A stretch of 64,000 nt of DNA from Shigella phage ESh36, in sequence record ON528746; one strand, given 5' to 3'. The position numbers and the translations under genes are program-made. Shown one piece after another: positions 35,266 through 45,209 of this stretch (positions are counted from its first letter, which is position 1; each line of letters starts with the position of its first letter). The notes under the pieces were generated by a model. That model had not been told where the DNA came from, did no database searches, and saw nothing but the letters and a program-made list of their open reading frames with translations.

Positions 35266-35646
35266 TCAATTAGAAAATAAATTTATCCAAGATTGTTCTT
35301 TAATTAAAAATGGCTCAGAATCATATGCCATTAAACTTTGTGTGATTAGTCCTTTAAAAGGCCCATCAATAAATTCCATGGTAAAATATGGAATTTTATT
35401 CATTAATCTTGCATTAGGAGCAGTACACAAAACTCTGCATCCTTTGAATACACCTTTTTGTAATTTGTATTGCTTAGGATAAAATTCGCTCAAGACGTTG
35501 TTATTTGCCAAAATTTCAAAATGATTCACCAATTTATTTTTAATAGTTTTTGGTGAAAAATAAAGATATTCGAAAAGTTGCGTGTCTGTCATCATTGCAT
35601 TCCAATCACAAAAAATTGAGGACGAGTAATACCGCCAATGCAGCAT
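35266..35646 (-). CDS. Hypothetical protein (vs.7 position)
   Basis: 126 aa ORF. Confidence 0.4.
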   Translation of the reverse strand: MLHWRYYSSSIFCDWNAMMTDTQLFEYLYFSPKTIKNKLVNHFEILANNNVLSEFYPKQYKLQKGVFKGCRVLCTAPNARLMNKIPYFTMEFIDGPFKGLITQSLMAYDSEPFLIKEQSWINLFSN

Positions 35647-36098
35647 TTACTATTGCAGCAGTGTTGCACAGTTTCAATATGAATATCATAAATTTTATCC
35701 ATATCAGGAGATTTAACAGGCTCATCGATTATATACAAAATCCGCGAAAGCGATAAACCTCTGAACTTGCTACCTCTATTACCAACAAAACTACGGATAG
35801 AATCGGTAAATAAGCGGAATCGAATATCATCGCTAGAATAACGAGAAAATTCTTTTTTAATGTGGCCCGCAGAAATTTTAGCGTAAGCTGAAGTATTAGA
35901 AAGAACAATAACTGTTCCACCATTATACAGCCAATTAGCAGCAAAGTTAGTCACAGCAGTTGATTTACCTGATTGACGTCCACCATCTAAACGAAGTGTA
36001 CAATATTCTTTAAATAAATGTGACGAATAAGGTACATAAAATCCACTATTACAAATTTCTTCTACTCTAGCATCAGAATGGTGTGTAAAAGCATTCAT
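35592..36098 (-). CDS. Small P-loop NTPase-like protein (vs.8 position)
   Basis: 168 aa; Walker A GGRQSGKST and Walker B-like ILYIIDEP. Confidence 0.45.
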   Translation of the reverse strand: MNAFTHHSDARVEEICNSGFYVPYSSHLFKEYCTLRLDGGRQSGKSTAVTNFAANWLYNGGTVIVLSNTSAYAKISAGHIKKEFSRYSSDDIRFRLFTDSIRSFVGNRGSKFRGLSLSRILYIIDEPVKSPDMDKIYDIHIETVQHCCNSKCCIGGITRPQFFVIGMQ

Positions 36099-36286
36099 CA
36101 GGATAGATAAGGACCAGTTAAAAATGTTCTCATTTTATTCTCTCTAAATTTGGGCCATTCCATGGCACATGAATTGTCCATTTCTGTATTTACCCATTAC
36201 CGCACTTGGGCTCGACCTTATTACAGGTTGGCGGGAATCCCTCATAGAATCATGAGGTCCAGCTTGTTCCCATATTTCTTATTTGC

Positions 36287-36760
36287 TTATTTGAATGATT
36301 TGACGTACTGAATAGAGCCTTTGCTATTCACGAAAGCGATTTTACCATTTTTGTTATACATGGTAGCAGTACGCTGATAACCATAAGTTTGTTTACCAGA
36401 TTGATAACCAACTAATGCGAAATTATCTTCACCCATTTTATTCTGCTTCGCGCGGATACGTTCATGACCATGTGCCATAAGAACCTTAGCGTCGCCAGTT
36501 GCAATGGATCTACGAGTTTTTTCATCTTCAACTGTATTAACAAAGTCGTCAAATGAATCAAATTTAGCGTGAGATTTATTATACAGTTTTCCATCTACTG
36601 CATAATTATATCCCTGTACATCCATCTCAACTTCTGTACCATCATCCAATACAGCAGTGATTTTTTGACCTTTTTTAAATTTCAAAAGATCAGTAAAAGA
36701 TTCAGCGATAATTTGAGAATTAATAGCTGCTTCAGTGATAAATTCTTGATATGTTTTCAT
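36287..36760 (-). CDS. Head internal protein (IP family) with capsid targeting sequence
   Basis: 157 aa; N-terminal MKTYQEFITEA leader typical of T4 internal proteins (cleaved after the Glu by the prohead protease). Confidence 0.6.
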   Translation of the reverse strand: MKTYQEFITEAAINSQIIAESFTDLLKFKKGQKITAVLDDGTEVEMDVQGYNYAVDGKLYNKSHAKFDSFDDFVNTVEDEKTRRSIATGDAKVLMAHGHERIRAKQNKMGEDNFALVGYQSGKQTYGYQRTATMYNKNGKIAFVNSKGSIQYVKSFK

Positions 36761-36769
36761 GTGTTTCCT

Positions 36770-37186
36770 TTAAATGTAAATAGTTTTACCGTAGTATTTA
36801 TACCAGTGTGGCTTCATTAAAATTTTTTCATCGAGTCGTTGTTGACTCAACTTAATAGCTGATTTGCATGGATTATAATCATTTTTCCATTCTGCTGAAA
36901 TATCGCTGATGTCAGGAACTTCAGTATCTTTTATACTGAACCCACGTTTTAAGCATTCCGTTATAATGTCTGATTGACGCTTTCGCAAAAATTCTAACTT
37001 ATCGTAAAAGAACGTAACATGACCAGAACCTAAAATAAACTCGGAAGATATTTTAAAATCTTTAACCCGTTTACCATTTGCCACATGTTTACGAACTATA
37101 CCAAAAACACGTGGCAATTCACGGTATTCTGCGATTAAATGTTGATCAGCAAGTTCAGATACTAAAGTCAAATTAATACGAGTCAT
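36770..37186 (-). CDS. denV: Endonuclease V (pyrimidine dimer DNA glycosylase)
   Basis: 138 aa; [17 protein letters not shown]...[11 protein letters not shown]...; matches T4 DenV. Confidence 0.9.
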
Positions 37187-37209
37187 TTTATCCCTCCAAG
37201 TAATTGTGA

Positions 37210-37243
37210 ATATACTATCACAATTCTAGGAGAAAGTAAACAA
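37210..37243 (-). promoter_or_regulatory. T4-type early promoter (denV)
   Basis: GTTTAC-18 bp-TAGTAT. Confidence 0.6.
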
Positions 37244-37245
37244 CT

Positions 37246-37776
<531 letters not shown>

Positions 37777-40647: not shown

Positions 40648-40672
40648 AGTATTTCCTTAGGTTGGTATAATT

Positions 40673-40705
40673 AGATAATATCACGTTTTAATAGATGGTA
40701 AACTT
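40673..40705 (-). promoter_or_regulatory. T4-type early promoter
   Basis: GTTTAC-17 bp-TATTAT. Confidence 0.55.
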
Positions 40706-41039
40706 ATTCTTCGTCTAGCTCGTCGATAAAGACGTTGATGGCCTCGATAACGGCATCATTGATAGCTAATAAAATAAAATCATCGTCAGTACCTTTAGAA
40801 GATTCTAAAGCATTGATATATGCTTGGTTGGCGAGTTCCCAAGCCTTTTTAAAATAAGGAGCTTCATCATCAGGACAAATATCCCGCACGCCTTCAAAGA
40901 TACGTTTGGCATAATCTAACACCCATTGTACAGGCATGTTTTGAGAACGTTCGTTAAACTCTTTAAAGTCCTTAGATTCAAAAAGCTCTTCAGGATAATT
41001 ATTTCTATTACAAAAAGCTTTACTAAAGTTACGTTTCAT
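40704..41039 (-). CDS. Hypothetical acidic protein (e.7 position)
   Basis: 111 aa ORF. Confidence 0.45.
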   Translation of the reverse strand: MKRNFSKAFCNRNNYPEELFESKDFKEFNERSQNMPVQWVLDYAKRIFEGVRDICPDDEAPYFKKAWELANQAYINALESSKGTDDDFILLAINDAVIEAINVFIDELDEE

Positions 41040-41095
41040 AATGTTTTCCTCATTTGTATAGGCTCATAATATCTCAGTCATGAGCCTATGTAAAC

Positions 41096-41359
41096 TTATT
41101 TCATATTATTGAAATATTCTTCTGCGATTTCGTCGTTATCATGGTAAACTTTAGAAGACAGTTTAACATAACCTTCAGCAGTGAACATGTTAATCACAAC
41201 CTTTACAGTATACCACTGACCGTCTTCATTACCCATTACTGCATAAGTTTCAAACATCGGATGGTCAGGACCGATAACTTTAATATCATTCACTGTACGA
41301 CCAAAATCTTCTGAAACACATTTCATAAAGAAGTTGAACAGTTCACCGTAATTATCCAT
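41096..41359 (-). CDS. Hypothetical protein (e.8 position); start moved downstream of the promoter
   Basis: ATG at 41359 with GGAG SD gives 87 aa (MDNYGELFNFF...); the ORF-track N-terminus is translated promoter. Confidence 0.45.
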   Translation of the reverse strand: MDNYGELFNFFMKCVSEDFGRTVNDIKVIGPDHPMFETYAVMGNEDGQWYTVKVVINMFTAEGYVKLSSKVYHDNDEIAEEYFNNMK

Positions 41360-41400
41360 TTCATTCTCCAAGTTGTTTTCTGTATCAGTAGTTGATAGTT

Positions 41401-41434
41401 GTATAGTACCATGGAAGAACAGAGATGTAAACAG
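41401..41434 (-). promoter_or_regulatory. T4-type early promoter
   Basis: GTTTAC-18 bp-TACTAT. Confidence 0.6.
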
Positions 41435-41554
41435 TTTTGTGAAAAAATTTTTAGGGAATTCTAGGGCAGGGATGGGCAATTAAAGGATAGGATAATATAT
41501 TATAAAGGGTATAAACTAAATGATGCCTAGAGAGGCCCGGAAAGGCCTAGATAC

Positions 41555-41580
41555 CAAAAAGCCCTATCATTTAGATAGGG
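41555..41580 (-). terminator. Intrinsic terminator downstream of the internal-protein gene
   Basis: CCCTATC-ATTTA-GATAGGG hairpin followed on the transcript by CUUUUU. Confidence 0.6.
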
Positions 41581-41588
41581 ATTTAAAA

Positions 41589-42152
41589 TTATTTACCTAG
41601 TTTACTTATTATAGCTTCTGCAGCAGCTTTTAGCTTAGATGCAGTGTTAATACGATTTTTAATTTCAGTATACGCATCGCCAAGAACATCAAGGCTATCA
41701 GAATAAACACTTACACTATTGCGTTCGCTATTTGAAATAGAACCTTTAGTTTTGCGGTCAAAATCGGTGTACACGTCTTGAAGATCGCGGGCTGCCTTCT
41801 TTGCATCATCCAATGCATCAAGAGCTTTATTCAAAGCATTAACGTATTTTTTAGTGTCGAACATATTCTTAGAAATTTTAACAGGTGCGCGTTCAGGAGT
41901 AGCTAACACAGATTTAGGAACCTGAGCGCCAGATGCCAATTTCTTAGAAATTTTGAAAAATGCTTTATTGAATTTATTTTCTTGACTCATTGTAAAAGAA
42001 CTATTATCGATGTTGTACATTTCAATAGCTTTAGCTTTCCACTTAAGAAAATCGCCGCGGTCTTTTGGGTCCAATTGGAAGAATACTTTAGTAAGATCTG
42101 CTTCAGATGGTAATTTTGCTGCTTCGGTTAAAAATTCGGCATAGGTTTTCAT
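41589..42152 (-). CDS. Head internal protein (IP family) with capsid targeting sequence
   Basis: 187 aa; N-terminal MKTYAEFLTEA leader. Confidence 0.6.
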   Translation of the reverse strand: MKTYAEFLTEAAKLPSEADLTKVFFQLDPKDRGDFLKWKAKAIEMYNIDNSSFTMSQENKFNKAFFKISKKLASGAQVPKSVLATPERAPVKISKNMFDTKKYVNALNKALDALDDAKKAARDLQDVYTDFDRKTKGSISNSERNSVSVYSDSLDVLGDAYTEIKNRINTASKLKAAAEAIISKLGK

Positions 42153-42242
42153 TTAAAATCCTTGAAATAATTTATCGGTTGGTTATTAATTATTTATTAC
42201 TTTGTTACTATCCGTAACAGCGTTATCCGAGTGATTCAAACT

Positions 42243-42270
42243 AAAAAGCCCCAACCTTTCGGTCGGGGCT
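42243..42270 (-). terminator. Strong intrinsic terminator ending the tRNA/small-RNA transcription unit
   Basis: 10-bp stem AGCCCCGACC/GGUUGGGGCU with GAAA loop, followed by UUUUU on the transcript. Confidence 0.7.
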
Positions 42271-42272
42271 AA

Positions 42273-42586
42273 GCCTTGCGGCAACCTTGTCGGGGTTCCA
42301 CCTGCTAAGGCAAGTGTTTGTACGAAACGCCGGGACTTGAACCCGGTTATTAAGTAGTTGACGCTACTCAATATTTTTAAAAGGCCATATCTCGACCATA
42401 TCCGAACGTTCCGTCAAAAACGCTACTCGGCTTACGGCAAAGATATTTCCTCGAATCGATAATTCGGTGCGCCGTTTCTGCTGTGATATAAGGGGACATT
42501 AACAAAACATAAAGATTTATTAATGCCAGTCCTTAAACAGGGAACATCAGTCCGACGACTTACCGGTAGCGACCCGGTTTCTTGTC
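42273..42586 (-). ncRNA. Candidate stable small RNA(s) between tRNA-Arg and the terminator (T4 species 1/2 position)
   Basis: No credible ORF; lies inside the tRNA operon before its terminator; contains a T-arm-like CCGGG-UUCAAGU-CCCGG element; boundaries not determined. Confidence 0.3.
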
Positions 42587-44951: not shown

Positions 44952-45209
44952 TTATTTTAAATCTTCTAATCGTTTCTTCATCTTAGAACCATTTTTAGCA
45001 ATTTCTCCTGCATCGGAGCATAATGCTAAAAGCGCTTTAACTTTAGTTTGATCTCCTTTAAAAGACGAAGGATCGACTGCAGCAGCAAGTTCTTTAATAC
45101 GAGAGAAAAGACGCTCAGCTTCAGCTAAAGCCATTCCAAGCTTTACTTCCATACCGTGGGAAGATTCAATGATAGTAGTTTTTGTAGCAAACTCTTTGAA
45201 AGTTTTCAT
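44952..45209 (-). CDS. Head internal protein, IPI-position allele with capsid targeting sequence
   Basis: 85 aa; N-terminal MKTFKEFATKTTIIE leader; sits just upstream of 57B as T4 ipI does, but the mature part differs from remembered T4 IPI. Confidence 0.5.
   Translation of the reverse strand: MKTFKEFATKTTIIESSHGMEVKLGMALAEAERLFSRIKELAAAVDPSSFKGDQTKVKALLALCSDAGEIAKNGSKMKKRLEDLK

Follow-up and report, generated by a model that had tools for sequence, protein, structure and literature searches.

The question raised by this locus is what a small gene carrying the leader of a T4 internal protein encodes on the far side of denV, and what its product might do for the phage. The original prediction was made on the window, by which we mean the whole 64,000-nucleotide stretch of Shigella phage ESh36 DNA analysed here (sequence record ON528746). 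It described an internal-protein-type product of 157 aa with a capsid targeting leader, placed between denV and the ORF in the vs.8 position, and suggested that a relocated or novel allele might supply a different injected counter-defence cargo. The layout that it described is borne out: the minus-strand order is e, a 59-nt spacer without an ORF that leaves denV next to e, denV itself, 9 nt, ip4, 188 nt and a vs.8 homologue, whilst the T4 reference record reads e > ipIII > ipII > denV > vs.8, as had been stated. The window is ~98% identical to Shigella phage ESh16 (ON528726.1) and 100% identical to it over 36000-37300. From upstream to downstream the locus comprises the following features.

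37246-37740, minus strand: e (lysozyme), the upstream border of the variable locus, from the annotation of relatives.
37187-37245, minus strand: e-denV spacer, of which the first ~55 nt are, by alignment, the sequence preceding T4 ipIII and T2 ip4.
36770-37186, minus strand: denV (pyrimidine dimer glycosylase), directly upstream of ip4; Pfam Pyr_excise, 51 bits (cut-off 23 bits).
36795-36802, minus strand: TATAAATA, a late-promoter-type motif 34 nt upstream of the ip4 ATG, inside denV codons Y-K-Y.
36761-36780, minus strand: shared 5' module TTTACATTTAAAGGAAACAC, with the Shine-Dalgarno sequence AAGGAA, overlapping the last denV codons and the denV stop.
36287-36760, minus strand: ip4 CDS, 157 aa, ATG start, TAA stop; precursor of internal protein Ip4, DUF7412.
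36731-36760, minus strand: capsid targeting sequence, ip4 codons 1-10 (MKTYQEFITE), ending in the prohead-protease motif I-T-E.
36701-36709, minus strand: second candidate gp21 site, ip4 codons 18-20 (I-A-E, E20/S21), from a motif scan.
36099-36286, minus strand: decayed 5' part of a T4-type vs.8, downstream of ip4; 188 nt, not a true intergenic region.
35592-36098, minus strand: vs.8 homologue, 168 aa, with the P-loop GGRQSGKS, the downstream border; aligns to T4 vs.8 residues 53-219.

Sequence and profile matches make it virtually certain that the ORF at 36287-36760 is ip4, already known from the T2-like Tequatroviruses as a gene for an internal head protein. Its translated product opens MKTYQEFITEAAINS... 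(also given as MKTYQEFITEAAINSQIIAESF...) and belongs to the Ip4/DUF7412 family by a full-length match to Pfam PF24183 (319.4 bits, E 5.7e-96, against a curated cut-off of 27 bits; residues 1-157 on profile positions 1-158); it also matches PHROG 3155, 'internal virion protein' (E 6e-102). A structure search among viral proteins returned a single real match, UniProt Q38388, named 'Ip4', from Enterobacteria phage K3 (99% identical, TM-score 0.94), and the gene is labelled Ip4 in the records of phage ime09 (YP_007004502.1) and phage JK1. Across its 157 residues it is the same protein as the Ip4 of K3, ime09, T2, RB3, RB18 and RB33 (99-100% identity, the T2, RB3, RB18 and RB33 proteins being 100% identical). 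By tblastn ip4 was present in 470 phage records, 290 of them with an identity of at least 99% and another 160, from T4-like phages of Klebsiella, Salmonella, Serratia and others, at 60-80%. In the T-even carriers it fills the same slot, following e or e-denV and preceding vs.8, and nothing of substance separates the window copy from those of other Ip4 phages: the neighbours vary, and in the window the 5' end of vs.8 is decayed. Beyond these phages the family is tiny, with 14 clusters at 90% identity among 5.8 billion proteins and just 4 at E <1e-10 in a profile search of 1.84 billion representatives; this search for remote homologues widened the family slightly and gave no functional clue. Among the database homologues, that of Klebsiella phage vB_Kpn_AM_K5 is 184 aa long, with a longer, divergent C-terminus past residue ~133, and another is a 39-aa truncation; both probably come from broken copies or from copies with a frameshift. 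Gene, name and family are all on record already, as is the variability of the locus, and in the field the ip genes already count as anti-restriction cargo that is injected; the name is said to come, probably, from Repoila et al. in 1994. Full-text literature searches for Ip4 with phage terms returned nothing specific, nor did literature searches yield data on Ip4 in mature heads, on its trimming or on its ejection.

Both labels that had been offered for the gene, 'relocated' and 'novel allele', have to be given up. Novelty is ruled out by the identical and near-identical copies, together with the Pfam and PHROG families, since this is a named family with copies in T2, K3, RB3, RB18, RB33 and ~290 records. 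A moved ipII or ipIII is ruled out as well, the leader being all that the protein has in common with IPI, IPII or IPIII in sequence, and the slot after denV is a normal one in 164 sequenced phages, the number of records in which a 401-nt probe of the denV-ip4 junction is fully covered. Alignment with T4 IPII and IPIII, a comparison that the original prediction had itself proposed, confined the likeness to the leader. The BLASTP alignment of IPIII with Ip4 stops at residue 13, that of IPII with Ip4 (27% identity over 98 columns, E 4e-6 in a six-sequence database) is leader-driven, no similarity was detectable after residue 13-17, and the mature part has none of the similarity to ipII or ipIII that would mark an allele; tblastn of IPI, IPII and IPIII against the window found leaders only. 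What Ip4 has in common with IPII and IPIII, whose genes lie on the other side of denV, is the leader, the ribosome-binding-site module, the e-to-vs.8 locus and the character of a small basic protein, and by analogy the three presumably share the same route of packaging, gp21 cleavage and injection.

ip4 lies in the e-vs.8 interval, which along with tRNA-57B is where variable ip loci are found. This interval is a variable locus with one ip slot on each side of denV, as the other gene orders in T2, ime09, Klebsiella phage K65 and Salmonella phage NP4 make plain. Phages pSs-1 and JK1 have the order e-denV-ip4-vs.8, identical to the window, and in their records and that of ime09 denV is annotated as endonuclease V. 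In ime09 the order is e, an ip gene like RB69ORF127c, denV, Ip4 and vs.8; K65 has e, ip4 and another ip gene; NP4 has lysozyme followed by Ip4; and in T2 (PV648364.1, 5419-6474; AP018813.1) ip4 comes directly after e, with no denV at the locus. T4 therefore fills the first of the two slots, the window phage the second and ime09 both. The absence of denV fits the classical UV sensitivity of T2. DUF7412 homologues were also found on three metagenomic contigs (the region given for one is 139-1215), and one of these distant homologues (36% identical) follows a Pyr_excise gene (27.8 bits against the cut-off of 23), the product of which has no significant BLASTP similarity to the window denV. On this single case the denV-ip4 order may be old; we do not rely on an ancient linkage, given that it is one case and that the two other distant contigs lack it.

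The leaders MKTYQEFITEA of Ip4 and MKTYQEFIAEA of T4 IPII and IPIII agree in 10/11 residues and 29/33 bases, a likeness at the sequence level far beyond chance. For IPIII, the first 10 residues are enough to bring foreign proteins into the head; residues 4 and 7 matter most for targeting, residues 8 and 10 for processing, and the gp21 protease cuts after Glu in L/I-X-E (PMC9026906). All four of the residues mapped in IPIII are retained in Ip4 (Y4, F7, I8 and E10), the targeting residues Y4 and F7 being as in IPIII, and the sole change from the IPIII leader, A9T, falls at the free X position. The leader ends in the gp21 motif, I8-T9-E10 followed by A11, and cleavage is predicted between E10 and A11. 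Amongst 12 homologues of 61-82% identity M1, K2, F7, E10 and E20 are invariant. The last of these closes the second candidate site, which in a 14-sequence alignment reads [I/L/M]-x-E-[S/A], with E20 invariant and I, L or M at position 18, and we infer from this pattern that gp21 uses E20 as well. The mature N-terminus of Ip4 would then be A11 and/or S21. T4 IPI/IPI*, which inhibits the GmrSD of strain CT596, is an internal protein too, made with an N-terminal propeptide and injected; it has a single L/I-x-E site, which at residues 17-19 (ITE, then A) is comparable to the second site of Ip4, whilst its leader subtype (MKTFKEF), its locus next to 57B and its sequence, unrelated to Ip4, set it apart. 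The distant metagenomic homologues, at 36-38% identity, have the variant leader MNFxxFLNE followed by S, written out as MNF(K/E)(D/Q)FLNE, and since a different leader with the same end motif persists in them, the leader appears to be maintained for function. Taken together, the leader and its motifs make it very probable that Ip4 is packaged, processed and injected.

The gene is under strong purifying selection. Between the window and T2 there are 21 nucleotide differences in ip4 and 0 amino-acid changes, and because 20/21 of these differences lie at third codon positions and none alters the protein, the minus-strand frame is the coding frame; against the Klebsiella and Salmonella phage homologues dN/dS is 0.13-0.15. 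Ip4 is basic, with a pI of 9.1, like IPII and IPIII. Its AlphaFold2 model is of moderate confidence (pLDDT 75.6, pTM 0.69) and shows residues ~30-157 as a compact alpha/beta domain, the N-terminal ~25 residues being of lower confidence. Neither in sequence nor in fold is Ip4 similar to a known GmrSD inhibitor (Ip1, Ip2 or Ip3).

How such a gene could have come to stand after denV is suggested by the sequence on its 5' side. The 20 nt before the ip4 ATG (TTTACATTTAAAGGAAACAC) are identical at 19/20 bases to the sequence upstream of T4 ipII, and the core ATTTAAAGGAAACA is found upstream of T4 ipIII and T2 ip4 as well. In T4, GGGAACAA... comes directly after denV; in the window ip4 stands as a clean insertion between this sequence and the denV stop. 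T2 ip4 carries the whole spacer that in T4 precedes ipIII, and the first ~55 nt after e are common to the window, where they stand before denV, to T4, before ipIII, and to T2, before ip4. Cargo genes that are otherwise unrelated have in common a module of ~50 nt made up of ribosome-binding site plus leader. Such a module would be the expected substrate for homologous exchange, and the sequences fit cassette exchange at a known variable locus. A model of ip exchange through a homologous module is reportedly due to Repoila et al. in 1994. By sequence comparison the e-denV-ip4 block is a mosaic with a sharp boundary in the e-denV spacer: denV differs from T4 denV at 28.8% of bases and 32/138 residues, whereas the adjacent e differs by 5.5%.

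AAGGAA provides a good Shine-Dalgarno sequence ahead of the ip4 ATG, and the gap of only 9 nt makes co-transcription with denV likely. The evidence for TATAAATA as a late promoter of ip4's own is weak, since the motif lies within denV codons, is absent in ime09, which has TACAAGTA at that position, and occurs in the window at a frequency not above chance (12 found against 10.7 expected). Just ahead of e, at 37754-37774, the TATAAATA motif occurs twice more. On the other side of the gene, the 188 nt 3' of ip4 have no Rfam match and no tRNA and fold like their shuffles (z = 0.32); an RNA element or terminator is ruled out there, the stretch being decayed vs.8 coding sequence. T4 vs.8 starts with MRDSRQPVIRSSPSAVMGKYRNGQFMCHGMAQ, and a 33-aa ORF at 36144-36245 corresponds to its first 32 residues. 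Compared with T4, two deletions past this ORF, of 8 bp and of 1 bp, split vs.8, with the result that the main ORF starts at an internal Met (MNAFTHH). The 8-bp deletion is carried by T2, ime09, pSs-1 and JK1 too, whilst the 1-bp deletion is found in the window only, among the phages compared.

We propose the following course for Ip4 during infection. The 157-aa precursor would be made from its strong ribosome-binding site, on a transcript that probably includes denV too and that perhaps starts at late promoters near e or inside denV. Residues 1-10 of the precursor, MKTYQEFITE, would steer it into the prohead scaffolding core, and the gp21 prohead protease would cut the leader off after Glu10, with a second trim probable after Glu20. 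The mature protein, of ~15-16.5 kDa and pI ~9, would stay amid the packaged DNA and then be co-injected with it. Once in the cell it would most likely inhibit, stoichiometrically, a single host nuclease active against glucosyl-hydroxymethylcytosine DNA; the nuclease proposed is a type IV restriction enzyme of the GmrSD type, belonging to a subtype outside those assayed so far.

That the phage injects a counter-defence cargo different from that of T4, as the original prediction supposed, is a reasonable inference by analogy, and it is strengthened by the fact that Ip1, Ip2 and Ip3 are all GmrSD inhibitors, each acting on one GmrSD variant with no cross-protection (PMC12373910). The GmrSD targets of Ip2 and Ip3 are those of ECOR21 and ECOR17 respectively (PMC12373910), and IPIII is needed on strain ECOR17 and is active from the cytoplasm without its leader (PMC9391042). 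On this analogy we lean, if only slightly, towards an anti-defence role for Ip4. A type IV restriction enzyme as its target, with Ip4 inhibiting a subtype beyond those assayed, is by the same analogy a tentative suggestion that falls somewhat short of probable. Published tests bear directly on this part of the proposal. Against a panel of active GmrSD variants ip4-10 gave no reproducible inhibition (PMC12373910, Supplementary Fig. 9), the 'ip4' of that study being equated with the present protein by the shared name. T2 is restricted by the GmrSD of ECOR17 and by that of ECOR21 (PMC12373910), and as T2 carries an identical Ip4, the protein does not block these two enzymes, the targets of Ip3 and Ip2, at native dose. 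The near-perfect conservation of Ip4 over hundreds of phages is, as far as the sequences go, unlike that expected of a fast arms race.

The same observations could be accommodated by an injected effector with a target outside GmrSD, either another early or first-line defence or a conserved host housekeeping factor, which would have to be one that needs neutralising in the first seconds of infection. The absence of a reproducible GmrSD interaction for ip4-10 (PMC12373910) and the restriction of T2 both favour such a target, the strong conservation points to a conserved target more readily than to the hypervariable GmrSD family, and the fold of Ip4 is an orphan. There is also a precedent in T4 Alt, a CTS-type packaged protein that modifies host RNA polymerase and no defence system (PMC9026906). 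We nevertheless consider this reading rather unlikely, for all three T4 Ip proteins with known targets act on GmrSD enzymes, and of the 20 GmrSD clusters common in enterobacteria no more than a part proved active and could be assayed, which leaves room for another subtype as the target. Conservation and the outcome of the ip4-10 assays (PMC12373910) would also suit a protein that is mainly architectural, a basic, DNA-associated filler for core assembly, DNA condensation or ejection with no host target; the mature protein is basic (pI 9.1), dN/dS is low, the gene sits where T4 has IPIII, the most abundant T4 internal protein, and in T2 it even has the upstream spacer of ipIII. Yet T4 does without Ip4 and has unrelated proteins in the locus, so that no structural role of Ip4 can be essential, and IPII and IPIII, once seen in just this way, are now specific inhibitors (PMC12373910). 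Compact and rich in invariant surface-type residues, the predicted alpha/beta domain would moreover resemble a specific binder, and an architectural role seems to us unlikely.

A further reading takes the leader for an evolutionary relic and Ip4 for a cytoplasmic early protein that is never packaged. It could appeal to the position of ip4 9 nt after denV, which makes co-transcription probable, and to the fact that no conserved late promoter was found upstream of ip4. A relic would, however, hardly keep all four mapped residues, with E10 invariant down to 61% identity, nor would homologues at 36-38% identity be expected to retain a lineage-specific leader ending in L-N-E, then S; and in IPIII the first 10 residues are by themselves enough to package foreign proteins (PMC9026906). 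We regard this last reading as highly improbable, and retain as the preferred one that of an injected Ip4 directed against a host nuclease.

Two other ORFs in the window start with leaders of this kind. The first, of 187 aa at 41589-42152 (minus strand), begins MKTYAEFLTEA, then AKL, and so has Y4, F7, L8 and E10, with a pI of 9.5. Flanked by the e.8-side ORFs and the tRNA cluster, it occupies a place without an ip gene in T4 and falls within a region (window 40665-42586, between e.6/e.8 and the tRNA cluster) in which the window differs from ESh16, which lacks the ORF; the window phage is thus a related mosaic Tequatrovirus distinct from ESh16. The ORF matches PHROG 2280 ('unknown function') and no Pfam family, and is present in 164 phage records, being a 'hypothetical protein' in every record sampled; on its sequence it is a candidate for an un-annotated internal protein. 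The second, of 85 aa at 44952-45209 (minus strand), starts with MKTFKEFATKTTIIE, then S, an IPI-type leader. It occupies the classical ipI locus, adjoining the 57B homologue, and matches PHROG 3499, 'internal head protein', and beyond the leader it is unrelated to T4 IPI. With ip4, the window thus encodes three leader-bearing proteins, none of them an orthologue of T4 Ip1-3.

For the biology of these phages, the shared module of ribosome-binding site and leader gives a concrete view of how unrelated cargo may swap into the same slots, and the conserved second candidate cleavage site predicts the N-terminus of mature Ip4. Were the target to lie outside GmrSD, the near-invariant sequence of Ip4 would reflect a conserved target and no arms-race partner, and, taken with the 187-aa ORF at 41589-42152, the injected cargo of T2-like phages would be functionally unlike that of T4. 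Among internal proteins with no assigned target, few are as widespread or as well conserved as Ip4 (~470 records, including T2), which makes it a promising subject for target searches in wild strains.
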